A stretch of DNA of 64,000 nucleotides from Thermoproteota archaeon (GCA_020832905.1 JAJHRG010000001.1:564940-628939); one strand, 5' to 3'. Shown: positions 2,062 through 31,267, numbered from the stretch's first letter. Notes: generated from the letters alone by a model not told the origin. Numbers and translations are program-made.

Positions 2062-3510
2062 ATGGGGCAAGAGCTTAAAATAGGAAGAGGCCCTCCTTTA
2101 GAACTAAGAGTTCTAAATGATCCAGGACCAGTATCTATAAGAAAAATTATAGGTCCAGGGCTTATTCTTGCAGCATTAGGTGTTGGAATGGGAGAAACAT
2201 TCATGTGGCCAAGACTTGTTATTGTCTTTGGTCCTGAAATTCGTTGGATTGCAACAGTTGGTTTAATAATACAAATATTTGTTACTGCAGAAATTGCTAG
2301 ATGGACATATTTTACTGGAGAAAGTATATTTGCAGCTGCAAGAAGAATTCATCCAATTATAATGTGGTACTTTTATATTTTAGCTATTTTTGTTTATATT
2401 TGGCCAGGTCATGTAGTTACAGGTAGTGGTGCATTAGCCTTACTATTAGGAGTGGATTGGATTCCTATTGCAATAGCAAGTATAATAGCAATAGCAGCAA
2501 TATTAATTTTAGCTCCATATCAAGTCTATAAAACTGTAAAAACAATTCTAGTAATTGCTATAGCAATAATGGTTGGAGTATCATTTATTGTAGCAGTATT
2601 AGTTGGTAGACCAGAACATTGGGCAGGAGCATTATATGGTACTGTTGCATTTGGATATTGGACAGATTTAATGAGCTCAAAAACATGGCTTCCATTAATA
2701 GTTGGTGCTATGGCATTTATTGGTCCTTCAGGTATGCAACAAATGTGGTATACATTATGGGCTAGAGAAGAAAATGCAGGAATGGGTGCTTATATGCCTA
2801 AAATAACTGGATTAATATTTGGAAAGGAAGAAACATGGAGAGAAGCTGGATTTTACTTTGATGTTAATTCAGATGAGGAAATTGCAAAATGGAAGCGTTG
2901 GAGAAGATTAAATATTTATGATGCTGTAATAACCTTTGGTCTTCTCACCTACTTTACAACATTATTCTTTACAGTATTAAGCATGAAGGCTGCTGAATTA
3001 AGTCCTGAAGCTCTTTCAGCAATAAAAGCAGGTAAGACATTAGTAGCAATAAAAGCAATTGCTTCTGCATTTACTTACATTTCTCCAGTATTATATCCAT
3101 TATGGTTTATAGTAATGTTCTTAGTAGGATGGAAGATGAGCTTTGGAATATTTGATGCTTTTGCAAGAGGACAAGCAGATATGACTTTCTATTTATTCAA
3201 AAAAGCACAAAAACTTGGAATGAGAAAATGGTATTATATATGGGTTGCAATAGTTACAATTTTTGGTATAATAACTACATTAGCAGGTGCTGCAAGAGGA
3301 CCTGTATTTCTACTTGATGTATTAGCATTTATGTCACCACTAATTATGGGAAGCTACTGCTTATTACTATTATATGTAAATAATAAAATGGTTCCAAAGA
3401 GAATAAGAATGTCTTGGATTTCAACAATAGTTTTAGCAGGAGGAGCCGCATTTTACTTAGTCTCATTATTCTACTGTACATTTGTTGTAGGTGCAGTACC
3501 AACAGGATAA
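2062..3510 (+). CDS. polytopic membrane transporter, possibly NRAMP/APC-superfamily-like
   Basis: 482 aa with about 11-12 hydrophobic helices. The N-terminal GPGLILAALGVGMGE block resembles the NRAMP-type first-helix motif. The family assignment is tentative. Confidence 0.4.
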   Translation: MGQELKIGRGPPLELRVLNDPGPVSIRKIIGPGLILAALGVGMGETFMWPRLVIVFGPEIRWIATVGLIIQIFVTAEIARWTYFTGESIFAAARRIHPIIMWYFYILAIFVYIWPGHVVTGSGALALLLGVDWIPIAIASIIAIAAILILAPYQVYKTVKTILVIAIAIMVGVSFIVAVLVGRPEHWAGALYGTVAFGYWTDLMSSKTWLPLIVGAMAFIGPSGMQQMWYTLWAREENAGMGAYMPKITGLIFGKEETWREAGFYFDVNSDEEIAKWKRWRRLNIYDAVITFGLLTYFTTLFFTVLSMKAAELSPEALSAIKAGKTLVAIKAIASAFTYISPVLYPLWFIVMFLVGWKMSFGIFDAFARGQADMTFYLFKKAQKLGMRKWYYIWVAIVTIFGIITTLAGAARGPVFLLDVLAFMSPLIMGSYCLLLLYVNNKMVPKRIRMSWISTIVLAGGAAFYLVSLFYCTFVVGAVPTG

Positions 3511-3534
3511 AATAATTCTTTTTTTTTATTTTAG

Positions 3535-3708
3535 GTGTTAATCTTGGAAAGATATGGAGAATGTGAATTTACATATGAAAAATGTAAGAAATGTGGAAGA
3601 AACTTTTATACTAGAGTAGATTCTCCAAAAGAATATTGTCCAGATTGTGAAAAAATAATAGAACTTGAAATTTTAGAAAAAAGAAAAAAATCAAAGACTT
3701 CTCCTTAA
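3535..3708 (+). CDS. small zinc-ribbon protein (CxxC...CxxC), not in ORF track
   Basis: GTG/TTG-initiated 57-codon frame encoding ...CEFTYEKCKKCGRNFYTRVDSPKEYCPDCEK.... It has two CxxC knuckles and a Lys-rich tail. Its 3' end overlaps the stop of the convergent epimerase gene. Confidence 0.4.
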   Translation: MLILERYGECEFTYEKCKKCGRNFYTRVDSPKEYCPDCEKIIELEILEKRKKSKTSP

Positions 3709-4614
3709 CTCTATAGTAGCTTTTAAAGCTTTTTTAAAAGCTTCTTTTGCTTTTTCATTAGGAATAAAACTCAATTCTTTTCTTATTTTTTCATCATTTA
3801 ATATCCAATTACCAGTTAAGAAGCCAGGTCCTTTCCATTCTGAAGGATCTACTTCTATAATATTAGATTTTGATCCTGAAAGTTCAATAATCATTTCTAA
3901 AATTTCCTTCCAAGTAGTATTAAAACTTAAGATATTATATATCTTTCCAAAGGCATTTTTATTTAATAAAGCTAATTCAAATGCTTTTATTAAATCATTT
4001 ATATAAAGAATACTTCCTGCAGAACCTTTAGGTACATATAATACTTCATTTTTTAAAGCACTATCTATTATTTTTCTTAATGTCCCCCCTGGTATTCTTT
4101 CATCACTAAAAGCCCACCAAAATCTAAATATTGTAAATGGAAAACCTCTTTCTTTATAATATATTTCCATGGCTTTTTCTACTGCAAGTTTTGTAAGAGC
4201 ATGAGTTGGAGCTCTTGATTTTTCTACTAATAAAGGATGATCTTCTTTTATTGGAACAATAACAGGCTCTCCATAAATTACTGAGCTACTTGGAAATATT
4301 ATTTGCTTAACACCATACTGACAACATGCCTCAATAACATTTAAAAATCCAATAACATCAATTTTAAATCCATCTAGCATTTTTTCTGAAAATGACCATG
4401 CTGAATAGAATACAACATCACAACCATTTACTACATTTCTAACAGTATTTTCATCTTCTACTCCTCCAATTATGAATTTCATATTTGGATGTTCAAAGCC
4501 TTCTAATTCTCCTTTTGTTTTATCTAATACTATAACTTCATGATTTTTTTGAAGAAGTGCTTTTACTAGTCTACTTCCAACAAATCCTCCTCCACCAGTT
4601 ACTAAAATTCTCAT
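3691..4614 (-). CDS. NAD-dependent epimerase/dehydratase (extended SDR)
   Basis: N-terminal Rossmann motif MRILVTGGGGFVGSRL. 307 aa, typical of UDP-sugar epimerase/dehydratase family members. Confidence 0.85.
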   Translation of the reverse strand: MRILVTGGGGFVGSRLVKALLQKNHEVIVLDKTKGELEGFEHPNMKFIIGGVEDENTVRNVVNGCDVVFYSAWSFSEKMLDGFKIDVIGFLNVIEACCQYGVKQIIFPSSSVIYGEPVIVPIKEDHPLLVEKSRAPTHALTKLAVEKAMEIYYKERGFPFTIFRFWWAFSDERIPGGTLRKIIDSALKNEVLYVPKGSAGSILYINDLIKAFELALLNKNAFGKIYNILSFNTTWKEILEMIIELSGSKSNIIEVDPSEWKGPGFLTGNWILNDEKIRKELSFIPNEKAKEAFKKALKATIELRRSL

Positions 4615-4663
4615 AAATATAAATTTAAATTCTTAACTATTAAAATTTTAATAGGGAAATAAA

Positions 4664-6022
4664 TTGAAAATTTGGCAAGGAGTTGAAGTAGAATACTGTG
4701 TTCCATATATTAATAGAAAAAACTATGTTAATGAATTATTAGAATCACTAAGAAATTATAAAATGCCATTAAAAAATACATCTCCTTTTCTAATGAAAAA
4801 AGATGGAAAATATACACAATTTCTTATTAATGGTGGAAGAGCATATGGAGATATAAGCTTTACACCAGGTGTATATGATATTTTAGAAATAACAACTCCA
4901 GAATGTCCAAATCCATTTTATACTCTTGCATATGAAAAAGCAACAGAAGTTTATGCAAGAATAGCATCAGATGAATTTGAAAGAACATCAGGAATGAGAG
5001 TACATTGTTATAAAATAAGTGTAGTAAAATCTGAATATGAGTATACCACTAGAGGACTTCATGAAAGTTATTTAGTAGAAAGAAAAGCTTTTGAAAATAA
5101 AATTATGGAATTAATTCCTTATTTAGTTATAAGACAAATATTTACAGGAACTGGTGGATATTATTTTGGAAGATTTTTAATATCACCAAGACAAATGTTT
5201 ATAAAATCAGTAGTTGCTGAGAAAATATTTGGAAATTGGCCATTAATTGCAGAAAGAGATGAACCACATGCAGATCCTAAATACAAAAGATTGCAAATTA
5301 CAAATGGAGAAGGAGCAAGAACTGAATGGACAATATTTATGAGACAAGCAATAACATCATATATAATTAAAGCTATTGAACTTGGATTAATAAAAGAATT
5401 ACCAAGAATTAAAGATCCTATTGAAGCTGCAAAATTAATTGCTATATCTCCAGAAGGAGATTGGAGTTTAGAATTAGAAAATGGAAAAGAAATTAAAGCA
5501 TTAGAAATTCTTTCATATTATTTAGAAGGTATAGAAAAATTATTTATGAATGAAGAAATAGATGATTATGATAAATATGCATTAAAAGAATTTAAATTTG
5601 TATTAAATAAATTAGAAGAAGGAGATTTTGAATCATTAAAAAATAGAATAGAATGGATTGTAAAACTTGAAATTTTAGAAAATAATTTTAATAAATATTT
5701 TGAAGGAAATGGAAGCGAAGAAGAAAAAATTATTGCAAATAATCAATTTTGTGCAATAACAGATGGAACTTTTGAAAGAATACAAGAAGAAATGAACTTA
5801 ATTACATTATTAAAAGATGAAGATTTATCAAAAGCAGTTCTATTTCCACCAGAAAATTCTAGAGCATATGCAAGAATAAAAATTGCTCAAATTTTAAAAG
5901 ATAAATTAGATGATATTGGATGGTCTTATATTATTGTAAATAGTAATAGATATCATATGCTAGAATTAGATGGATGGAATGATGAAAAAATTTCAAAATT
6001 TTTAAATGAAATTATTTCTTAA
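4664..6022 (+). CDS. Pup-ligase/deamidase family protein (PafA-like paralog 1)
   Basis: 452 aa with a TTG start. Family blocks present: GVEVEY (GxExE[YF]), RAYGD, GLHESYLV (cf. PafA GCHENYLV), LIPYLVIRQIFTGTGG, ERDEPHADPKYKRLQITNGEG, KDPIEAAK and IEWIVK. Confidence 0.8.
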   Translation: MKIWQGVEVEYCVPYINRKNYVNELLESLRNYKMPLKNTSPFLMKKDGKYTQFLINGGRAYGDISFTPGVYDILEITTPECPNPFYTLAYEKATEVYARIASDEFERTSGMRVHCYKISVVKSEYEYTTRGLHESYLVERKAFENKIMELIPYLVIRQIFTGTGGYYFGRFLISPRQMFIKSVVAEKIFGNWPLIAERDEPHADPKYKRLQITNGEGARTEWTIFMRQAITSYIIKAIELGLIKELPRIKDPIEAAKLIAISPEGDWSLELENGKEIKALEILSYYLEGIEKLFMNEEIDDYDKYALKEFKFVLNKLEEGDFESLKNRIEWIVKLEILENNFNKYFEGNGSEEEKIIANNQFCAITDGTFERIQEEMNLITLLKDEDLSKAVLFPPENSRAYARIKIAQILKDKLDDIGWSYIIVNSNRYHMLELDGWNDEKISKFLNEIIS

Positions 6023-6093
6023 TTTATAACTCTATTTATAAGAAGTTTAAACATTTAAAAAAATTTTTATAATTTTAAGAATAATTTAATATT

Positions 6094-7665
6094 ATGAAAA
6101 TATTAAAAGAAATGGCAAGAGGTTGTGAATACGAATTTAGTGTAAATAGATATCCACCAATTCTTCCTGGTATTCAACTTTCAGATATTATAGGAAGAAC
6201 AATACTTGCATTAAAAAATTTAGGATTTATATCTAAAGTAATGTGGAGTGTAGAAGATGAAATTGGAAATTTAACTTATGAACGTGGTTTATTTGATTCT
6301 TGGTTATTTGCAGAAGGACCTTATGAAATTGCTTTTAATGGAATGAGAATATATGATGATGCTCAACATTTAGAATTTTCTACTCCAGTATTTAGAAGTC
6401 CAATTGATGCAGTAGTTTATGATAAAGTTGCTGAAAGATTAGCTTTTTTAGGAATAGAACAAATAAGAAAAACTCATGGAGAATTATATTGTTATAAAAC
6501 TAATAATAGTCTATTAAAAGGATCTTATGGTTATGAAGCAGTAGCATGGGGGACTCATGGATGTTATTGTGTTAGTAGAAGAATTTTTAATTTTGAAAAT
6601 TGGAAAAATGTAGAAAAAATTCTTATTCCCTTCATTATAAGTAGAATTCCATTAATTGGTAGTGGAGGAGTATTACCTATAAGAAATGAATTTTCATTTG
6701 AACCTCCAACAAGTTCAAGATTATGTGGTGATAAAATAATATATGTAATTTCACCAAGAGCAATTTATATAAAACAATTATCATCTATTGATACTACAGT
6801 AGATCGTGGATTTTTAAATCTAAGAGATGAACCACATGCTAATCCTAATAAGTATTGGAGATTACATGATATAAATTTTGAAGCAATAAGAAGTGATTTT
6901 CAAATATTTATTAGAGATGCATTAGAAGTTTTTACATTAAGAGCAATTGAAGAAGGATTATTACAAAATCCACCAATAATTAAAGATCCAATAGAAGCTA
7001 TAAGAAAAGTTTCAATGAATATAAATGAAATTGATCAATTTATTGAATTAGAAGGAAGTAATAAAGCAAGATTACTATCAGATATACTTTCATATTATAT
7101 TTCTGCAATTGAAAAACTAATAGAATTAAGAGGAGATAATGAAGACCATAAAGTTTTTAAGGTTATAGAAAGTGTAATTCAGAAACTAAAAGAAGGATTA
7201 TTTGAATATTTAAATGGAGCTATTGATTGGATTGCAAAAATGATGCTAATAGAAGAATATAATGCTAAAGATATGGATATGGCTATTATATGTAATCAAT
7301 ATGGATTATTAGATGAAAATACAGGTTTTTATGAAGGAAGAATAGAAAAAGGTGATACTTTATTTGATCCTGAATCTTCCTTAGCTTTTCTTGAAGAAGT
7401 ATTTCCTTTTGTAAAATCAATAAAAGAGAAAATAAAGTATGGTATGAATAATCCTCCTACAGATACTAGAGAATATTTAAGAACAAATATTTTAAAAGAA
7501 CATGAATCAGAAATAATAAAAATGAATTGGTGGAAAATTTACTTTAAAGGAGGTTTAATTACTTTAGATGAGCCATTAAGATATGGAAAAGAAGAAAGTG
7601 AAGAAATTTTAAAGATAAAAGACTTAAAAAAATTATCTGAAGTTATAAGAGGTGAAGCTAAATGA
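6094..7665 (+). CDS. Pup-ligase/deamidase family protein (longer, Dop-like paralog 2)
   Basis: 523 aa. Family blocks present: GCEYEF, RIYDDAQHLEFSTP, LIPFIISRIPLIGSGG, LRDEPHANPNKYWRLH, KDPIEAIRK and IDWIAKM. The H-E-N block is diverged (GTHGCYCV). It carries extra insertions and a longer C-terminus than paralog 1. Confidence 0.75.
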   Translation: MKILKEMARGCEYEFSVNRYPPILPGIQLSDIIGRTILALKNLGFISKVMWSVEDEIGNLTYERGLFDSWLFAEGPYEIAFNGMRIYDDAQHLEFSTPVFRSPIDAVVYDKVAERLAFLGIEQIRKTHGELYCYKTNNSLLKGSYGYEAVAWGTHGCYCVSRRIFNFENWKNVEKILIPFIISRIPLIGSGGVLPIRNEFSFEPPTSSRLCGDKIIYVISPRAIYIKQLSSIDTTVDRGFLNLRDEPHANPNKYWRLHDINFEAIRSDFQIFIRDALEVFTLRAIEEGLLQNPPIIKDPIEAIRKVSMNINEIDQFIELEGSNKARLLSDILSYYISAIEKLIELRGDNEDHKVFKVIESVIQKLKEGLFEYLNGAIDWIAKMMLIEEYNAKDMDMAIICNQYGLLDENTGFYEGRIEKGDTLFDPESSLAFLEEVFPFVKSIKEKIKYGMNNPPTDTREYLRTNILKEHESEIIKMNWWKIYFKGGLITLDEPLRYGKEESEEILKIKDLKKLSEVIRGEAK

Positions 7666-7757
7666 GTGATATTTTACCATCTTTTAAGAAAAAAGAAAAA
7701 GTAGATAAAAAGTTAAAAAAAGAACATGCTGAACTTATTGCTCCACCTGGTGAATAA
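7662..7757 (+). CDS. 31-aa Lys-rich peptide ending Gly-Glu; candidate Pup/UBact-like modifier
   Basis: Sequence MSDILPSFKKKEKVDKKLKKEHAELIAPPGE. The ATG overlaps the TGA of the upstream gene (ATGA). A GAGGTGA SD ends 6 nt upstream, the same motif and spacing as before other genes in the window. It is too short for the ORF track. Confidence 0.55.
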   Translation: MSDILPSFKKKEKVDKKLKKEHAELIAPPGE

Positions 7758-7762
7758 TAAAC

Positions 7763-7796
7763 TTTTTTAATTATTTTTTATAATTAAAAAATTTTT
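7763..7796 (+). terminator. oligo-T tracts flanking an AT hairpin downstream of the small ORF
   Basis: T6 run, then inverted repeat TTAATTAT-ttttt-ATAATTAA (7767-7787), then a T5 run. Archaeal termination typically uses oligo-T. Confidence 0.35.
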
Positions 7797-7893
7797 AATG
7801 AAATTATTTAATTAAGTCAATAATCATTATAAACATGTTTATAACTGATTAATTTTTATAGAAATATTTTTATAGCTTTTTAAAAAATTTAAA

Positions 7894-8193
7894 TTGGGGG
7901 TTCTGGTGCCAGAAATAATACTTCGTATAAAAACATCTGATATTAAAGGCAATATAGGTCTTCTAAATCCACAAGATTTATCAAAACTTGGTGCAAAGGA
8001 AGGAGATGAAATAGAATTGTATTCAACTTCAAGAGCATGGACTATAAAGACAAAATCTGATTCTTCAGTACCTATAGGAGAAGTAAGAGTAAGCACAGAC
8101 GTTCTGAGAAGACTTGATGTAGAAGATGGAAGTGAAGTAAGAGCTTATTGGGCTCCTCCAGTAGTAGAAGAAAAATATGAACCCCCACCATGA
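7894..8193 (+). CDS. stand-alone double-psi-beta-barrel-like protein (Cdc48/VAT N-domain or FwdD-like)
   Basis: 99 aa. The pattern ILRIK..D.....GLLNPQDLSKLGAKEGDEIEL....R.W......D..VP.GEVRVS.DVLRRLDVEDGSEVRA matches the Cdc48_N/VAT-N repeat signature. It has a Pro-rich tail. Its stop lies 9 nt before the OFOR gamma-delta gene. The start may be GTG at 7906. Confidence 0.5.
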   Translation: MGVLVPEIILRIKTSDIKGNIGLLNPQDLSKLGAKEGDEIELYSTSRAWTIKTKSDSSVPIGEVRVSTDVLRRLDVEDGSEVRAYWAPPVVEEKYEPPP

Positions 8194-8202
8194 GGTGAGA
8201 TT

Positions 8203-9264
8203 TTGGCTATATTTGCAGTTGAATTTGATGGAAGAGGTGTAACACAAACTGCATTAATGAGAGCTGCTAGTGAAATCATTTGTACTGCTGCAGATAAGGA
8301 TGGATTTCCATCAATTGGATATGAAAGATACGATGATGCTCCTGATAGAGTTGGTGTACCAATTAAAGGATTTTCAGTAATATCAAGAACAGCTCCCGCT
8401 TCATATGAAAAAGATTTAGAAGATGTTGCAGTTGATGTTGAAAAACTTAGTCCTCCAACACCAGATTACTCATATTATCAAGTATGCTATGATGAATTAG
8501 CACCTGAAGCAATGCTATATGAGCCAAGAGCTGTAGATGCTGTACTAGTACTAGATGATACTTTAGTAAAAGGAGAAGAACCATGGGCTTATATAGGAGT
8601 ACAACCAATACATGAGAAATTAAAAGATGGAGGAGCAATAATAGTAAATAGTAAAAGAGATCCAGAATATCTTTTAGAATTTATTCATCCAACAACTAAA
8701 AGATATAAATTAGCAGTTATTGATGCAGATTCTATGGATAAAATAATTATATTACCATTAATAGGTGCTATGCTAAAAGTAGCTCCTGGTATTGTTTCAT
8801 ATAGATCAGTTATTGCTACTGTAAAGGAAAGATATAAAGCTGAAGGAATAAAGAAAGCACAAGTAATAAAAGATGCTTATAATAAAGTAAGATGGATAGA
8901 AGTTCCACCTGCTAAAGAACCAATACAAATAAAGAGAAAGAGAAAATTCCTTGAAGAATTTCCAAAATGGCATGAAATGCCTATAGGTCTTGTAGTTCCT
9001 GCACCTCCAGTAAATGGTCCAAATCCACACTTCAAAACTGATACATTTAGGACATATAGACCTGTAACAGATACAAGTAAGTGTAATAAAGATGGATTAT
9101 GTTGGTTATATTGTCCTGATTCTGCTAGAAGTCCAGATCCAGAGACATTTTTTGCTGTAAATCTTGAATATTGTAAAGGTTGTGGTATTTGTGCTGAAGT
9201 TTGTCCTGTTAAAGCAATTAAAATGGTTAATGAATTAGATTTTAGAGGTGAGAAATTATGGTAA
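8203..9264 (+). CDS. 2-oxoacid:ferredoxin oxidoreductase, fused gamma-delta subunit
   Basis: 353 aa with a TTG start after a GAGGTGA SD. The C-terminal part has two 4Fe-4S motifs (CNKDGLCWLYCP, CKGCGICAEVCP) typical of the delta subunit. The N-terminal ~250 aa is gamma-sized. Confidence 0.75.
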   Translation: MAIFAVEFDGRGVTQTALMRAASEIICTAADKDGFPSIGYERYDDAPDRVGVPIKGFSVISRTAPASYEKDLEDVAVDVEKLSPPTPDYSYYQVCYDELAPEAMLYEPRAVDAVLVLDDTLVKGEEPWAYIGVQPIHEKLKDGGAIIVNSKRDPEYLLEFIHPTTKRYKLAVIDADSMDKIIILPLIGAMLKVAPGIVSYRSVIATVKERYKAEGIKKAQVIKDAYNKVRWIEVPPAKEPIQIKRKRKFLEEFPKWHEMPIGLVVPAPPVNGPNPHFKTDTFRTYRPVTDTSKCNKDGLCWLYCPDSARSPDPETFFAVNLEYCKGCGICAEVCPVKAIKMVNELDFRGEKLW

Positions 9265-10448
9265 GAGTTATAACAACTGGAACTGTTGCAATTGCAACTG
9301 CTGTTAAACATGCAGATGTTGATGTAATATCTGCATATCCAATTAGACCATATACAGGAGTAATGAATGAATTAGCAAGAATGATTGCTGATGGAGAATT
9401 AGATGCAGAGTTCATTGTATGTGATTCAGAACATACACAATTTGAAATTGCAAAACATGCTGCAGCATGTGGTGCAAGAGTATTTACTGGTAGTGCAGGT
9501 ATTGGATGGGCATATGCTCATGAAGCTATTGTTGTTACACCAACAGATAGAGTTCCAGTAGTTGCAATGGTTGGAAATAGAGCATTAGATGATCCAGGAA
9601 ACTTTGGTGTAGAACATACAGATGTTTTAGTTGCAAGAGATTTAGGATGGATGATGTGCTGGCCTGAAAATCCACAAGAAGCTTATGATTTAACATTAAT
9701 GGGTTATAAGATTGCTGAAAATCCTAATGTGCTATTACCATATATAGTAAATTGTGATGGAAACTTTATTACTCATGTAAGATTTCCAGTAGATCTTCCT
9801 GATGAAGAACTTGCAAGAGAATTCTTACCACCAACTCCACCACCAAGACCAAATATACTACATCCAGATAAACCAATATCTATAGCTCCACATGTAGACT
9901 ATTACTGGGGAACTGAAATAAGAAGACAAATGGATCAAGCAATGAAGAATGCTATTGAAGTAACAAAAAGAGTTCATGAAGAATTTAATAAGATATTTGG
10001 TAGAGGAGGACCTCCATTTATTGAAGAAATTAATACAAAAGATGCTGATGTTGCTATGATAGGAGTAGGCGGAATGACAATGGTAGCAAGAGCAGCAGTA
10101 AGAGAATTAAGACAAAAGGGAATAAATATAGGTTTTGTAAAGCTTAGAAGATTTAGACCATTTGCTACTGAAGAAATAAGAGAAGCTTTAAGGAAATTTA
10201 AAGTAGTTGCTGTATTAGATAATGACTTCTCATTTGGATCTGCACATTGTGGAGGAATATTATTCCAGGAAATTCGATCTGCTTTATATGATCTATCTGA
10301 AAGACCAATTGTTGTTAATTACTTAATTGGACTTGGTGGAAGAGAAATTACTGTTGATGCAATGAAGAGAATTGGTAAGGAGATATATGAAATATCAAAG
10401 ACAAAAGAAGTTAAACATATAGTTAAATGGGTTGATGTTAGGGAGTGA
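9258..10448 (+). CDS. 2-oxoacid:ferredoxin oxidoreductase alpha subunit
   Basis: 396 aa. The opening ...AVKHADVDVISAYPIRPYTG... is typical of POR/VOR/KOR alpha. It overlaps the upstream gene and has a GAGGTGA SD. Confidence 0.88.
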   Translation: MVRVITTGTVAIATAVKHADVDVISAYPIRPYTGVMNELARMIADGELDAEFIVCDSEHTQFEIAKHAAACGARVFTGSAGIGWAYAHEAIVVTPTDRVPVVAMVGNRALDDPGNFGVEHTDVLVARDLGWMMCWPENPQEAYDLTLMGYKIAENPNVLLPYIVNCDGNFITHVRFPVDLPDEELAREFLPPTPPPRPNILHPDKPISIAPHVDYYWGTEIRRQMDQAMKNAIEVTKRVHEEFNKIFGRGGPPFIEEINTKDADVAMIGVGGMTMVARAAVRELRQKGINIGFVKLRRFRPFATEEIREALRKFKVVAVLDNDFSFGSAHCGGILFQEIRSALYDLSERPIVVNYLIGLGGREITVDAMKRIGKEIYEISKTKEVKHIVKWVDVRE

Positions 10449-11382
10449 TAATATGAGTTGGGAGAAGATAGAAATAAGAACACTTAAAGATGTTCCTAAA
10501 GAGGAATATTATGTAGCAGGACATAGAACATGTCAAGGATGTGGTCCTGCTCTTGCATGTAGATTAATAGCAAAAGCTGCAGGTCCAAGAACTGTATGTA
10601 TTGTTGCTACTGGATGTATGTATGTAGCAAATAGTAGTTATAATACAACTCCATGGGCAATACCATGGATGCATGCACAATTAGGAGGAATAGGCTCAGC
10701 AGTAGCTGGTGCAGCAGCTGCATTTAAAGCTATGATGAGAAAAGGAAAAATAAAGAAAGAAGAAATTCATGTTTTAGGAATTGCAGGAGATGGTGGTGCT
10801 GCAGATATAGGTCTTTCAGCTATATCTGGTGCTATGCTATCAGGTGGTGATCACTTAATAATTACATATGATAATGAATCTTATGCAAATACTGGAATTC
10901 AAGCTTCAAGTTTAACTCCATGGGGTGCTTGGACAACATTTACTCCTCCAGGAAAAATGTTAAGACTTGGAAATGTAAGAGTTAAAAAAGATTTACCAAG
11001 AATGATTGCTGCAGGACATCCTAATGTACGCTATGTAGCAACTGCAAGTATATCATTTCCATTTGATTTAATGACAAAAGTAAGAAAAGGATTAGCTGTA
11101 AAAGGTCCAGCTTTTATACAAATTCATACACCATGTCCTAAGGGATGGAAATTCCCACCAGAATTAACCATAAGAATAGGTAGATTAGCTGTAGAAACAG
11201 GAATGTGGACATTATATGAAGTTGAAGATGGACAATTTAGATTAACTTTCAAGCCTCCAAAGAGAAAACCAGTATCAGAATACTTAAAACTTCAAGGAAG
11301 ATTTGCTCACTTAAGAGAACCAGATATTAGATATATACAAGAACAAGTAGATGCTGCTTGTAAGCAATTAGGTATTGACTAA
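10432..11382 (+). CDS. 2-oxoacid:ferredoxin oxidoreductase beta subunit (TPP-binding)
   Basis: Carries CQGCG, the GDGGAADIG TPP motif and YDNESYANTG. The real start is more likely the ATG at 10453 (MSWEK...), which is preceded by AGGGAG. Confidence 0.88.
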   Translation: MMLGSDNMSWEKIEIRTLKDVPKEEYYVAGHRTCQGCGPALACRLIAKAAGPRTVCIVATGCMYVANSSYNTTPWAIPWMHAQLGGIGSAVAGAAAAFKAMMRKGKIKKEEIHVLGIAGDGGAADIGLSAISGAMLSGGDHLIITYDNESYANTGIQASSLTPWGAWTTFTPPGKMLRLGNVRVKKDLPRMIAAGHPNVRYVATASISFPFDLMTKVRKGLAVKGPAFIQIHTPCPKGWKFPPELTIRIGRLAVETGMWTLYEVEDGQFRLTFKPPKRKPVSEYLKLQGRFAHLREPDIRYIQEQVDAACKQLGID

Positions 11383-11805
11383 ATTTTTTTCTTTTTTTAT
11401 TTTTTCTAAAGCTTTAATAACAGTAGGAGATATTTGAATATTTTTTAATTCACTTATATCAAACCATTTAGCATCTAAAACATCATCTCCTGGTTTTAAT
11501 TCACCACCTATTAATTTTCCTATGTAATCTATTATTATATAATGATATTTTATTCTACCATCATTATCTTTAATAATTATATTAAAAACTCCTAATAGTT
11601 TTTCAATAATAGCATTAAGTCCTGTTTCTTCTTTTAATTCTCTAATTGCAGCTTCTTCAGGAAATTCTCCAAGTTTAATCAATCCTCCAGGTATAGACCA
11701 TAATCCCTTATTTGGTTCATTTCCTCTTTTTACAAGTAGTATTTTTCCATTTTCTATGATTAATACTCCTACACCAACTAAAGGATGATCATGATATTCA
11801 CGCAT
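11368..11805 (-). CDS. NUDIX hydrolase
   Basis: Nudix box GGLIKLGEFPEEAAIRELKEETGL. Confidence 0.9.
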   Translation of the reverse strand: MREYHDHPLVGVGVLIIENGKILLVKRGNEPNKGLWSIPGGLIKLGEFPEEAAIRELKEETGLNAIIEKLLGVFNIIIKDNDGRIKYHYIIIDYIGKLIGGELKPGDDVLDAKWFDISELKNIQISPTVIKALEKIKKEKNLVNT

Positions 11806-27768: not shown

Positions 27769-28578
27769 ATGAAAATCATTAACTTATTATTACTAAGTCT
27801 ATTATTTTCACTTATACTAGCTTATCCTATATTAGCTCAATCTAATAATATGTACATAAAACTTCAAAAATTTACAATTTATGATATTAATCGTGATTTT
27901 ATATACATAGAATATTTAGGAGAAGAAGATATTATAGTTTTAATTGTAAAATCAGATTCTAATTTAGATATAGTAAAACAAAGTATCGGTATTGGTTATG
28001 GTAGTATTACAATACATATTAAAAATACTTCATATAAATTAGGATCATGTATAATTGCTTTATTCTCTACAAAATCCTTTTTACTAAATATATCTATGAG
28101 AATGGGAGAAATACCACTACAAACTCAAACAATTTCTGTACCTGCTAATATTACATTACAAATGGAAATACCAATAGAATATGGTGGTTATCAACAGCCA
28201 ATATATACTATTACTAATGTTTCATATACTCCATATTTTCCAATATGGACTCTTTTAACATATGCTATAATATTACCAATGTTTATTATAACAGGATATT
28301 TAGATAAAAACTCATTGAAAATTATGAGAAAACGTTGGACACAATTAGATACATTTGCCATTATAATAAGATATGCTTTTTATGCTTTTTTAGTAATATT
28401 CATTATAGTAACTATTGAAATTGTAGTAGAATACATATTATCTAGACTTAATATTTATGCAATAAGTTTACATATAGGAGATTGGTTTATCTCATGTATT
28501 TTATTTTCTATATTTACTATAATATATGGAATAGGAAAATGGAGGGGAATATTTGAAAATGTTGATGGAGAAGAGTGA
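27769..28578 (+). CDS. signal-peptide plus C-terminal multi-TM membrane protein
   Basis: N-terminal signal-like MKIINLLLLSLLFSLILAYPILA, an extracytoplasmic ~130-aa domain, then 3-4 TM helices. Its 3' end overlaps the AAA-Lon gene by 26 nt. Confidence 0.6.
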   Translation: MKIINLLLLSLLFSLILAYPILAQSNNMYIKLQKFTIYDINRDFIYIEYLGEEDIIVLIVKSDSNLDIVKQSIGIGYGSITIHIKNTSYKLGSCIIALFSTKSFLLNISMRMGEIPLQTQTISVPANITLQMEIPIEYGGYQQPIYTITNVSYTPYFPIWTLLTYAIILPMFIITGYLDKNSLKIMRKRWTQLDTFAIIIRYAFYAFLVIFIIVTIEIVVEYILSRLNIYAISLHIGDWFISCILFSIFTIIYGIGKWRGIFENVDGEE

Positions 28579-31267
28579 AGATTATTGGTGGTGGATTAAA
28601 AGACCTATTTTAAGAAAATTATTATGTTTACCATTATATTTAGCTAATAGAGAATATAGAAGATGGAGAAATGCAAGATTAAATCCAAGAATTATTAAGA
28701 AAAAATTAGCAGAAATAGATAAAAAATTTCCAAAAAAGAAAGAAGATCTTATTGGAAGAGATAAAGAATATCAATTGATAATGAGTGCAATTGGTTATCA
28801 TGTTATAAGAGATCCTTCACTATTAAATATATTTAAGGGAGCACCTCCACCAAAATTCTTTATACTTAAGGGTACAACAGGTACTGGAAAAACATTACTT
28901 GCAGAAGTTTGTATAAGAGATGCTATAGAATATGGAATAAGTAAGGGAGTAAATGTACAACCAATAGTTGTTATGGGAAGTGATATATTTAATCCATTAT
29001 ATGGACAATCAGTTATTAATTTATCATATATATTTAGAAAAGCAAAGGATACTCCAAGTATAATATTCTTTGATGAATTTCAAAGCATAGGTATACGTGT
29101 AGAAAGACCAATGTATGGTGCAGATAGAGAAGATATGAGAGTACAAGATGCATTTATAGAGCATATTAATAAAATACTAAATACACCTCAAAGAACTATT
29201 GTTATTGCTGCTACAAATAAATTTGAAAGTATTAGAGAAGATATTAGAAGAAGAGCATATGTAATTGATTTAGATCAGAATATTACAAGAGAAATGCTTC
29301 TTGCAGTTCTTAAAGCTGAGTTAGAAAAATATGGATGGACACATTTATCACCTAATGAAGTTTTAACAGTATTAGAAAAAGCTGTAAGTACATATAGACA
29401 AACACAACTTACACCTTTTGATATAATTGATGCATGTAATAGAGTTAGAAGTAAAAAAATAGAACCTTTAAGAGAAAAGTTTTTCAAAAAGATGATATTT
29501 AGTAAAAAAACTACTTCTGATGATTTGAAGTTATTAGTAACAATAGATGATTTTAAGTTAGTTGCAAGAGAGTTAAGAGGATATACAGAACAAGAAAAAA
29601 GCGATGAAGTTATGGCTTCAGTATTAAGAATAAAACCAGCTGTTAGCTATAAAGATATTGGAGGACTTTTTGGAATAAAGGAAAAACTATTTAAAATAAT
29701 ATCTCTAAGTCTTTCTCCTGAATTAGCAAGTAAGTTAAACTGGGTTCCACCAAAAGGCTTTTTACTATGGGGAGAACCTGGTTGTGGAAAAACATATCTT
29801 TCAAAAGCAATTGCAAAAGAAAATAATGCAACATTCTTTTATGTTCCTGCAGCTCAACTTTTAATTAATGCAAAATGGGTTGGAGAACCTGAGAAAAATG
29901 TAAGAGATTTATTTGCACTTGCAAGAAGACATGCACCAAGTATAATATTTTTTGATGAATTTGATGTTATTGCTGGAAAAAGAAGAGGAGATCCTGTAAG
30001 TGATAGATTAACTGCACAAATATTAACAGAACTAGATGGTTTACAGCCATTAGAGAATGTAATAGTAATAGCAGCAACAAATAGATTAGATGCAATTGAT
30101 GAAGCAATAATTAATAGATTTGAACCATATGTAATAGAAATTCCCTTACCAAGAAATGATGCAGAACGTTTAGATATTATAAAGGTTCATTTAAGACATT
30201 ATATTGCTCATCTTCATCCTGAAGTTACTCCTGAGAAAGTATTAAATATACTAAAAAAACATAAAGTAGTTTCTCCAAGAGTAGTTAGTGAAATTATAAG
30301 AGAAGCAAATAGATTAAGATCACAAGAAGTTAATGCAGCAATAGAAATTACTAGAAATAAAGATAGATTAGCAGAAATTTACAATCTTTATAGAGAAGAA
30401 ATTGAAAGATTAAAAGAAGTTTTAGGTGCTTTAGATTATGAAGTACTAAAAGAAGTTAAACCAGAAACCTATAAAATAAGACTTTATCATTTTGAAAAAG
30501 CTGCTGAAGAACTTGAAAGTGAAATTGAAAAAGAAATAATGGATGCTCAGGAAAGTATGATTTATGAGAAACTTAATCCTGGTGTAGCATTAGGTCTTGC
30601 TACAGATCCTCAAGGTAGAAAAGGAGTAATACTAATAGTTGAATGTGCATCAAAACCAAATGGTAGTGGTAAAATTACAGTAACAGGAGCAGCAAAAACT
30701 GCAGTTATAGGTCCTGGTACAACAGTTGAAGATGTAAGTGTTATTGAAAGTGCTACTAATGTCATAGAGTTTATTAAGAGATATATCTATGAAAAACTAG
30801 GAATAGATATTTCAAATTATGATTTTACATTTCAAGTTATAAGTCCACTTGAGGGAGCACCAGGAATGGGAGTAAGTGGTCCAAGTCTTGGTCTTGCTTT
30901 TAGTGTAGCTGCTATATCTGAACTTGCAGGAATAGAAGGAAGAAAAGATGTAGTTATGAGTGGAAAAGGTGATATAAAGGGAAATGTTGGTCCTGTAGGA
31001 GGAATGAGTTGGCGTGGATCAGGAAAAATTTTAGCTGCAATTCAAACAAAAAGAATAAAGATTAAAAAATTTATAATTCCAAAGTGGAATTATGAGCATT
31101 CTCCTGATGAAATAAATATACTTAAAGAAGAAGGTATTGAAGTTATACCTGTTGAAAAGCAAGTAGAAGCATGGCTTAATGTATTCTCAATAACTGAAGA
31201 AGAATTACTAAATAGAATTGCTAAAAATATTGAATTAAAGTCTAATATTAAAGCAATATTAAGGTAA
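28553..31267 (+). CDS. tandem AAA+ ATPase fused to a C-terminal Lon (S16) protease domain
   Basis: TTG start after GGAGGGG. AAA-1 has GTTGTGKT / IIFFDEF. AAA-2 has GEPGCGKT / IIFFDEFD with classical-clade sensor blocks. Lon_C has GVALGLA, ITVTGAA, GVSGPSLGLA (catalytic Ser) and GSGKILAA (catalytic Lys). Confidence 0.8.
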   Translation: MKMLMEKSEDYWWWIKRPILRKLLCLPLYLANREYRRWRNARLNPRIIKKKLAEIDKKFPKKKEDLIGRDKEYQLIMSAIGYHVIRDPSLLNIFKGAPPPKFFILKGTTGTGKTLLAEVCIRDAIEYGISKGVNVQPIVVMGSDIFNPLYGQSVINLSYIFRKAKDTPSIIFFDEFQSIGIRVERPMYGADREDMRVQDAFIEHINKILNTPQRTIVIAATNKFESIREDIRRRAYVIDLDQNITREMLLAVLKAELEKYGWTHLSPNEVLTVLEKAVSTYRQTQLTPFDIIDACNRVRSKKIEPLREKFFKKMIFSKKTTSDDLKLLVTIDDFKLVARELRGYTEQEKSDEVMASVLRIKPAVSYKDIGGLFGIKEKLFKIISLSLSPELASKLNWVPPKGFLLWGEPGCGKTYLSKAIAKENNATFFYVPAAQLLINAKWVGEPEKNVRDLFALARRHAPSIIFFDEFDVIAGKRRGDPVSDRLTAQILTELDGLQPLENVIVIAATNRLDAIDEAIINRFEPYVIEIPLPRNDAERLDIIKVHLRHYIAHLHPEVTPEKVLNILKKHKVVSPRVVSEIIREANRLRSQEVNAAIEITRNKDRLAEIYNLYREEIERLKEVLGALDYEVLKEVKPETYKIRLYHFEKAAEELESEIEKEIMDAQESMIYEKLNPGVALGLATDPQGRKGVILIVECASKPNGSGKITVTGAAKTAVIGPGTTVEDVSVIESATNVIEFIKRYIYEKLGIDISNYDFTFQVISPLEGAPGMGVSGPSLGLAFSVAAISELAGIEGRKDVVMSGKGDIKGNVGPVGGMSWRGSGKILAAIQTKRIKIKKFIIPKWNYEHSPDEINILKEEGIEVIPVEKQVEAWLNVFSITEEELLNRIAKNIELKSNIKAILR

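Follow-up and report, generated by a model that had tools for sequence, protein, structure and literature searches.

Among the closest described counterparts of the archaeal locus reported here are two bacterial systems, Pup-PafA-Dop (PF05639; TIGR03686; TIGR03688) and UBact. UBact is a protein of ~50-60 amino acids (aa) with the C-terminus R-[TS]-G-[E/Q], encoded in Dop/PafA/proteasome-containing operons of Gram-negative bacteria, and Lehmann et al. are reported to have described it in 2017 as a Pup-like modifier of some Gram-negative phyla. According to Iyer et al., a G-[EQ] end marks conjugation competence (PMC2588565). Pup binds PafA and Dop by its last 27-28 residues only, as two helices and a tail, with its N-terminal part uninvolved, and an insertion, the Dop-loop, is found in all Dop orthologs and in no PafA homologs (PMC8599861). 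In the review literature accessible to us, Actinobacteria and other bacteria are the only organisms for which pupylation is described (PMC3511204, PMC8599861, PMC12288473). Here we analyze 64,000 nucleotides (nt) of a Thermoproteota archaeon genome (GCA_020832905.1, JAJHRG010000001.1:564940-628939; this whole stretch is referred to as the window), in which two genes of the Pup_ligase family, paralogs A and B, are followed by a small open reading frame (ORF) at positions 7662..7757. We report that this ORF is a conserved gene, and propose that its 31-aa product probably serves as a minimal Pup-like tag.

A small gene conserved beside archaeal Dop-like genes

Related loci, numbered with the prefix L, were collected from three sources. 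Scanning species-representative genomes with B yielded eight loci in which B is 65-92% identical, all of them in metagenome-assembled genomes (MAGs) of Ca. Methanomethylicota, Methanomethylicales or Thermoproteota. The protein database supplied distant relatives (30-43% identity; named Methanomethylicota or Bathyarchaeia at the source), the contigs of which were retrieved, and a metagenome scan with the B alignment returned eight more archaeal-type loci together with 72 bacterial Dop/PafA loci. We treated as evaluable the 21 distinct archaeal-type loci whose sequence extends beyond the 3' end of B.

A preliminary description of the window had proposed looking for the small ORF in relatives that keep the ligase-like genes. 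It is present throughout: a small ORF ending in G-[E/Q] adjoins the enzyme genes in 21/21 evaluable loci, with the terminal G-[E/Q] invariant and the coding sequence under purifying selection. The loci come from Methanomethylicota, Bathyarchaeia and other Thermoproteota, range in G+C content from 25% to 62%, and encode enzymes that are only 30-92% identical to one another. An ORF of 27-47 aa lies immediately 3' of B in 19 distinct loci, the window included, and the peptide ORF is upstream of the enzyme pair in L013/L014. The Dop-like paralog is directly upstream of the G-[E/Q] ORF in 20/21 loci, counting a 91-aa ORF in L017 that is described below. Start codons are ATG, GTG or TTG, and a GAGGTG/GGAGG-type motif is found ~2-11 nt before the start in all 21 loci. 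As a control, the identical ORF scan was run on the 72 bacterial Dop/PafA loci, where it recovered canonical Pup (...FVKSYVQKGG[E/Q], 60-86 aa) just 3' of dop in 55 of them; these comprise 54 distinct Pups, 23 ending in GGE and 31 in GGQ.

The pattern of substitution is that of a protein-coding sequence. Among the nine copies from Methanomethylicales, aligned by codon, the proportion of synonymous differences (pS) is 0.12-1.0, with synonymous sites saturated, while the proportion of nonsynonymous differences (pN) is 0.01-0.12; dN/dS is 0.03-0.28 where computable. The codons of the terminal motif vary synonymously among loci (e.g., CCACCTGGTGAA, CCCCCTGGGGAA, CCGCCAGGAGAA), and the C-terminal motif with its stop occurs once per locus, except for one unrelated in-frame match in L009/L010. 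The frame of the ORF relative to B also varies: the two overlap at -1 in the window, the ORF follows the stop of B in frame in L003-L008, and 5 nt separate the two in L015. Because synonymous sites are saturated, pN is low and the frame relation to B varies, we conclude that 7662..7757 is a real protein-coding gene under strong purifying selection. It is also the most conserved small feature of the locus. We considered whether the peptide might be a frameshift or read-through extension of B and rejected this, since the frame relation differs among loci and each copy has its own Shine-Dalgarno (SD) motif and start codon.

In the window, the ATG of the small gene (7662-7664) overlaps the TGA of gene B (7663-7665) as ATGA, just as the preliminary description had it. 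The exact SD-like 8-mer AGAGGTGA has only two copies in the 64-kb window, at 7648-7655 and 9244-9251; the second precedes the ATG of the 2-oxoacid:ferredoxin oxidoreductase (OFOR) alpha gene at 9258 by 6 nt, the same spacing as at the peptide gene. The earlier statement that this signal is shared with other genes therefore holds for OFOR alpha, whereas phoU and the others named with it lack the exact 8-mer. Two T6 tracts (7763-7768 and 7774-7779), read directly from the sequence, follow the gene, and oligo-T tracts are likewise found 3' of the peptide ORF in L001-L008. The tracts had been described together with a hairpin; a terminator scan detected no G+C-rich hairpin after the peptide gene, so that any hairpin there would be formed by A/T pairs only. 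G+C content is very low across the window (21-35% in 2-kb bins), and a bare ORF of 31 sense codons is not beyond chance at its base composition (P ~0.054). Mechanical translation gives 267 ORFs of 25-60 aa in the window, and the peptide ORF is the sole one among them that ends in G-[E/Q]. What places it beyond chance is its conservation in every related locus.

Sequence and predicted structure of the peptide

The family alignment holds 19 non-redundant peptide sequences, with the consensus M-x(2-17)-[LF]-[FP]-P-S-F-K-K-[RK]-x(5-9)-[IL]-K-K-E-H-x-E-V-[VI]-A-P-P-G-[EQ]. Met-1, His-22 and Gly-30 are invariant, and the C-terminal five residues are the best-conserved part of the peptide. The last residue is E in 14/19 sequences and Q in 5/19, with nothing else seen at this position, and it switches between E and Q in pairs of near-identical peptides (P0036/P0037, P0039/P0040, L021/L026).

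The peptide had been characterized as half the length of Pup and basic, and the family as a whole bears this out: its members have 27-47 aa against 60-86 aa for Pup, a net charge of +2 to +11 against -11, and a mean isoelectric point (pI) of 9.8 against 4.3. Given the family alignment as input, AlphaFold2 (AF2) models residues 8-26 as a helix and residues 27-31 as an unstructured tail, with a predicted local distance difference test score (pLDDT) of ~70.

Relatives of the peptide are few and unnamed in databases. A profile search of 5.8e9 proteins, led by the 41-aa peptide of L009, found 13 relatives, all unnamed, and five clusters emerged when 1.84e9 cluster representatives were searched exhaustively with HMMER. 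The window's own peptide has a JGI record as 'hypothetical protein'. No Pfam match was obtained for the window peptide at E<=0.01, nor for the 19 family members at E<=10.

The Dop-like enzyme and its loop-less paralog

The gene upstream of the peptide had been called Dop-like, and profile scores, predicted fold and a tryptophan of the putative Dop-loop all agree with that name. B scores 184 bits against PF03136 (cut-off 25). The Dop model TIGR03688 gives 176 bits and the PafA model 121 bits, with the Dop equivalog cut-off of 492 not reached. Searches against the PDB favor Dop (1e-29) over PafA (6e-12). The AF2 model of B (pLDDT 93.6) has its best Foldseek matches among Dop-Pup complexes (e.g., 7oxy, template modeling (TM) score 0.75/0.83, E 4e-29), followed in similarity by PafA-Pup (4bjr, TM 0.67/0.71), while the small-molecule ligases YbdK and GCS reach only ~0.4. 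These comparisons indicate that B is Dop-like in its predicted architecture.

For residue-level comparison, the archaeal A and B sequences were aligned with MAFFT to bacterial sequences taken from the control loci, 14 of Dop and 12 of PafA; active-site numbering follows Acidothermus (Acel) Dop. In this alignment, an insert of B between strands b1 and b2 lines up with the bacterial Dop-loop, including an acidic stretch and a tryptophan, W51, which would be the equivalent of W47 of Acidothermus Dop (W-S-V-E-D-E...E-R-G-L in B vs R-W-D-Y-E-x-E...A-R-G-F in bacteria). A phmmer search of the N-terminal 118 aa of B against the PDB aligned only residues 79-116 and left the loop region unaligned. Because the similarity is seen in the MAFFT family alignment and not with phmmer, it is suggestive of a Dop-loop equivalent. 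B keeps R90, Y92, D94, H97, E99, R205, T217, R221, N225, R227, H231 and H241, and the catalytic residues R90, Y92, D94, R205, R227 and H241 are invariant in the B family.

Paralog A scores 203 bits against PF03136 (cut-off 25) and 145 bits against the PafA model TIGR03686 (cut-off 551), and is far below the equivalog cut-offs of both the PafA and the Dop model. Its PDB matches are Dop at 7e-30 and PafA at 1.5e-18. In the MAFFT alignment it has no Dop-loop insert, like PafA. It keeps GxExE, N87, Y92, E99, E104, H155, E156, R180, R205, E229 and R239. R90, D94 and D228 are kept in 11-12/13 A members, just under the 90% threshold, and by all or nearly all B members. The bacterial enzymes show no or almost no variation in 68 columns, of which 35 are kept in B, 29 in A and 19 in both; common to A and B are GxExE, N87, Y92, E99, K142, H155, R180, R205, E229, R239, W363, P429, R433 and R437. 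This column comparison suggests that the active-site cradle is retained in both families, yet that A is no conventional PafA: it is PafA-like in its predicted architecture only, with a divergent active site.

A neighbor-joining (NJ) tree resolves three deep clades, namely B with the B-type protein of L017, bacterial Dop with PafA, and A with the A-type protein of L017, as a topology that cannot settle the orthology of A and B. Identity is ~25% between archaeal and bacterial enzymes and 39% between bacterial Dop and PafA. The archaeal enzymes branch from bacterial PafA/Dop as deeply as those two from each other. The deep separate clades and the ~25% identity argue that the archaeal enzymes are not a recent transfer from Actinobacteria.

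We also compared the whole-protein net charge of the enzymes with that of the peptide. The acidic archaeal A, set against a nearly neutral bacterial PafA, fits complementarity with a basic peptide; bacterial Dop is acidic yet binds acidic Pup, and we therefore discarded this comparison as uninformative. In the subclade formed by L016/L018, the loop of B is shortened and lacks the Trp, paralog A has His for the catalytic Asp and Val for R90, and the peptide is still intact.

Comparison with described modifiers

The locus shares with Pup-PafA-Dop its two paralogous Pup_ligase-fold enzymes, one of them with a putative Dop-loop, and a small gene immediately 3' of the Dop-type gene. The product of that gene ends in G-[E/Q] with Glu and Gln alternating, is predicted to consist of a helix and a flexible C-terminal tail, and is about as long as the part of Pup that binds PafA/Dop. 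Its shortness is readily explained, because only the last 27-28 residues of Pup make that contact. The two also differ. The archaeal peptides end in PG[EQ] or SG[EQ], so that the strict GG[EQ] is absent; they have no detectable homology to Pup, in addition to the differences in length and charge given above. The archaeal enzymes stand apart from bacterial PafA/Dop in identity, in their clades and in falling below the equivalog cut-offs. The locus has no proteasome genes, and its host is archaeal.

With UBact the archaeal peptide has in common a small ORF after a Dop-type gene, a G-[E/Q] end, a sequence that cannot be aligned to Pup and a basic C-terminal region. UBact differs in being bacterial and longer, and in its end, R-[TS]-G-[EQ] after RRYRQ, against KKEHxEV[VI]APPG[EQ] in the archaeal family. 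The comparison of ends and length draws on an example that came to light in the metagenome scan: contig L096 carries, after a divergent bacterial Dop gene, a UBact-type ORF of 56 aa (5448..5618; MPDQAQ...DQARRYRQRTGQ) that ends in ...RRYRQRTGQ.

Two further kinds of small protein were compared. LysW, an amino-group carrier protein, is small and acidic and has a Zn-ribbon with CxxC pairs; its C-terminal Glu provides the gamma-carboxylate for attachment, its partners are ATP-grasp LysX ligases, and it is encoded in lysine/arginine biosynthesis clusters. The archaeal peptide, in contrast, is basic, lacks Cys and a Zn-ribbon, has partners of the glutamine-synthetase (GS) fold and is not part of a conserved biosynthetic cluster. 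In the literature we found, archaeal tags have the ubiquitin fold, namely SAMP2 (PMC3701171) and a ubiquitin-related modifier in Sulfolobus (PMC4569737). Such SAMPs/Urm1-type proteins resemble the archaeal peptide, if it is a tag, in being small archaeal tags on lysines, some tied to proteasomal turnover (PMC4569737). They differ in having a beta-grasp fold, ~70-90 aa, a Gly-Gly end and adenylation by the E1-like UbaA, whereas the peptide is a predicted helix of 31 aa with a Gly-Glu end, encoded beside GS-fold enzymes.

A candidate Pup-like tag and its alternatives

We consider it probable, with considerable room for doubt, that the peptide is a minimal Pup-like tag that is ligated through its C-terminal Glu and is the partner of the PafA/Dop-type enzyme pair. 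The argument starts from the C-terminus: an end that is only ever Glu or Gln, after an invariant Gly, is what would be expected where the last residue is itself the substrate, first of deamidation and then of activation. Among the roles that had been put forward for the peptide, namely a modifier, a substrate of the ligase-like enzymes or a regulator, the data favor a modifier or substrate that uses the C-terminal Glu/Gln.

By analogy with Pup, the free peptide would be largely unstructured, and its last ~27 residues, comprising the helix and the extended A-P-P-G-E tail, would occupy the groove in which the enzymes bind peptides, so that the C-terminal Glu reaches the active site, which is like that of glutamine synthetase. 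The loop-less paralog A would phosphorylate the gamma-carboxylate of this Glu with ATP and then join the peptide to an amine, which by analogy would be a lysine epsilon-amino group of a target protein. The Dop-like B would deamidate the forms that end in Gln and may also remove the tag. We infer the ligation chemistry, the identity of the ligating paralog and the protein acceptors from the bacterial systems. The fate of the tag is suggested by a single locus, L017, the gene order of which would be compatible with routing to the proteasome by way of an AAA+ unfoldase. If the peptide is ligated, the computed tryptic remnant on Lys is EHAELIAPPGE, with a mass shift of +1143.556 Da.

Several observations weigh against a Pup-like tag. 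Profile comparison gives no link to known tags: hhalign of the archaeal peptide alignment against 13 bacterial Pups returns a probability of 0.2%, the peptide hidden Markov model (HMM) matches the 54 Pups only at E>1 even in a database of 56 sequences, and against the UBact-type example of L096, the single UBact sequence in the test, E is 4.7. The charge of the peptide is opposite to that of acidic Pup, and the peptide has no counterpart of the Mpa-engaging half of Pup. The enzymes have lost residues too. A lacks H97, T217, R221 and N225, which are invariant in bacterial PafA and Dop; it keeps the phosphate-contacting R227 in only 7/13 members (the window copy among them), has Q for H241 in 8/13 (again including the window copy) and His for the catalytic Asp in 2/13. 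Because invariant and phosphate-contacting residues are lost or variable, A might not be a conventional ligase. B has lost E104 and E156. At the level of the locus, A is absent beside B in L003 and L021, and no proteasome gene (including prcBA), mpa or unfoldase gene is adjacent, the AAA+ gene of L017 being the only exception. Finally, all sequences come from MAGs or metagenomes.

The alternative that fares best, and one we regard as unlikely, is that the peptide is a non-covalent partner, that is, a regulatory subunit, inhibitor or activator of the Dop-like enzyme or of both enzymes, which would then act on some other pair of carboxylate and amine. The tight coupling of the peptide gene to B, through the ATGA overlap and the gene order, fits such a role, as do the degraded phosphate-contacting residues of A and the lack of homology between the peptide and known tags. 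A binding partner, however, leaves unexplained why the peptide, after its invariant Gly, has nothing but Glu or Gln as the last residue and switches between the two, and the C-terminal five residues are the ones best conserved.

Distinctly unlikely, in our judgment, is a carrier or scaffold peptide for small-molecule metabolism, LysW-like or of the kind used in C-terminal peptide-scaffolded biosynthesis, on which other enzymes would act and from which B would release the product. Such a peptide would account for a terminal Glu beside enzymes with a carboxylate-amine ligase fold, LysW-type carriers also use a C-terminal Glu, and several lineages have metabolic neighbors (the OFOR operon, an epimerase). 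Against this stand the lack of any tailoring enzyme conserved with the trio of A, B and peptide across lineages, the basic peptide devoid of Cys and Zn-ribbon, unlike LysW, and the nature of the enzymes, which resemble PafA/Dop, have a complete C-terminal domain and a putative Dop-loop, and are not GCS2/YbdK-like (TM ~0.4).

A precursor of a ribosomally synthesized and post-translationally modified peptide (RiPP), processed by both enzymes to a secreted natural product, is highly improbable. It would explain a short peptide encoded beside ATP-dependent ligase-fold enzymes, but here the whole peptide, chiefly its C-terminus, is conserved across archaeal classes in place of a conserved leader and a variable core, its gene has no conserved companion for a protease, a transporter or additional tailoring, and there is no Cys/Ser/Thr-rich core.

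The chance that the ORF is fortuitous or part of a non-coding element (a terminator or 3' untranslated region) that gives no peptide product is practically negligible: 31 codons are not rare at 25% G+C, but the codon-level pattern, the frame, start codon, SD motif and terminal motif kept in 21 loci from 25% to 62% G+C, and the only G-[EQ] end among the 267 small ORFs of the window effectively refute it. A tag that uses its C-terminal Glu explains the evidence better than any of these alternatives.

Features and gene neighborhood of the locus

The features of the locus are collected in Table 1.

Table 1. Coordinates of the enzyme genes, the peptide gene and its signals in the window.
Feature	Position	Strand	Remarks
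Paralog A, 452-aa protein of the Pup_ligase family, candidate ligase	4664..6022	+	Pfam PF03136, E 1.1e-59; no Dop-loop
Paralog B, 523-aa Dop-like protein, candidate deamidase/de-conjugase	6094..7665	+	Pfam PF03136 (Pup_ligase), E 5.7e-54
Shine-Dalgarno-like AGAGGTGA	7648..7655	+	Within the 3' end of gene B, 6 nt before the peptide ATG
Small ORF, candidate Pup-like tag gene	7662..7757, including stop codon	+	Lys-rich product MSDILPSFKKKEKVDKKLKKEHAELIAPPGE, then TAA
Codons for C-terminal A-P-P-G-E	7740..7754	+	Family consensus A-[PA]-[PS]-G-[EQ], then stop
Two T6 tracts	7763..7779	+	3' of the peptide stop; putative archaeal-type oligo-T termination signal

B and the peptide gene are linked in every locus, and A is usually directly upstream of B. 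Beyond this trio, the neighborhood comparison found no gene conserved across all lineages, and therefore no biosynthetic cluster. In L003, the place of A is taken by an IS605-type TnpB gene (4454..5557, - strand; OrfB_IS605 with a Cas12f1-like TNB domain), and in L006 A and B are set apart by 1.3 kb devoid of long ORFs.

In Methanomethylicales (2062..11805 in the window; L002-L010), the gene order is membrane protein, epimerase (- strand), A, B, peptide, barrel protein, OFOR gamma-delta/alpha/beta and NUDIX (- strand). The five-gene OFOR operon (8203..11382) begins with the gene of the 99-aa barrel protein (7894..8193, + strand). In the Bathyarchaeia contig L009, the OFOR block is inverted and still adjacent. 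Besides the Methanomethylicales, a single Bathyarchaeia contig and one more lineage show the epimerase and OFOR adjacency; for OFOR, this covers the window, L002-L012 and L019 alone, with unrelated neighbors elsewhere. We therefore rejected the OFOR operon as a part of the system, given its absence from other lineages, and treat it as lineage-specific synteny. The adjacency could be plain synteny or could be a hint that OFOR is a target. The 99-aa protein encoded directly 3' of the peptide gene has weak matches to CDC48_N and Molydop_binding (barrel), and is kept with the OFOR operon in L002-L010 at 44-76% identity.

L017 (3..5670; ENA ERZ27245612 k141_37068) encodes, in this order, a double-AAA+ ATPase with an N-terminal coiled-coil-like region, a Dop-like protein, a 91-aa ORF and a PafA-like protein. 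The 91-aa ORF, between the B-type and the A-type gene, ends in ...KPIHVSGE and cannot be aligned to the short peptides. This order matches the actinobacterial mpa-dop-pup...pafA and gives a hint of a link to an unfoldase; it counts as a hint only, because L017 is a single metagenomic contig of 5.7 kb.

Elsewhere in the window, 21 kb from the Pup-like locus, a gene at 28553..31267 (+ strand) encodes a 904-aa protein with two AAA (PF00004) modules and a Lon_C protease domain, an unusual AAA-AAA-Lon architecture. Between the membrane-protein and epimerase genes lies a 57-aa ORF (3535..3708, + strand) with two CxxC pairs (weak zinc-ribbon matches), another small gene that annotation may miss. An Rfam scan of the whole 64-kb window gave no family at the gathering threshold, and a tRNA scan gave no tRNA gene.

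Implications for protein tagging in Archaea

To our knowledge, how substrates are chosen for the archaeal proteasome is largely open. A search of the full-text literature accessible to us found no paper on an archaeal PafA, Dop or Pup. The existence of the archaeal enzymes is not new, because databases already label them 'PafA2 family'; it is the peptide and the system-level reading that appear to be new. The gene itself is easily overlooked, as gene callers miss the peptide ORF or call it 'hypothetical', hiding the key component of the proposed system. We see the case as evenly balanced that this is the first archaeal Pup-type (gamma-glutamyl-lysine) tagging system, with a third, sequence-unrelated class of G-[E/Q] tag reduced to a Lys-rich ligase-docking module of ~30-40 aa.

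If this is true, Pup-type tagging would be no bacterial invention confined to proteasome-bearing bacteria, and may be an ancient, modular system that the domains have in common or have exchanged, wired in some lineages to a Cdc48/PAN-like unfoldase (L017) and hence to the archaeal proteasome. Pup-based proximity labeling already employs the PafA/Pup pair, and the archaeal peptide, if confirmed, would define a minimal tag of ~30 residues with possible use in engineering. Confirmation would also give Archaea a second, chemically different route of tagging, and would inform the question of where Pup-type tagging arose with respect to proteasome transfer between domains.

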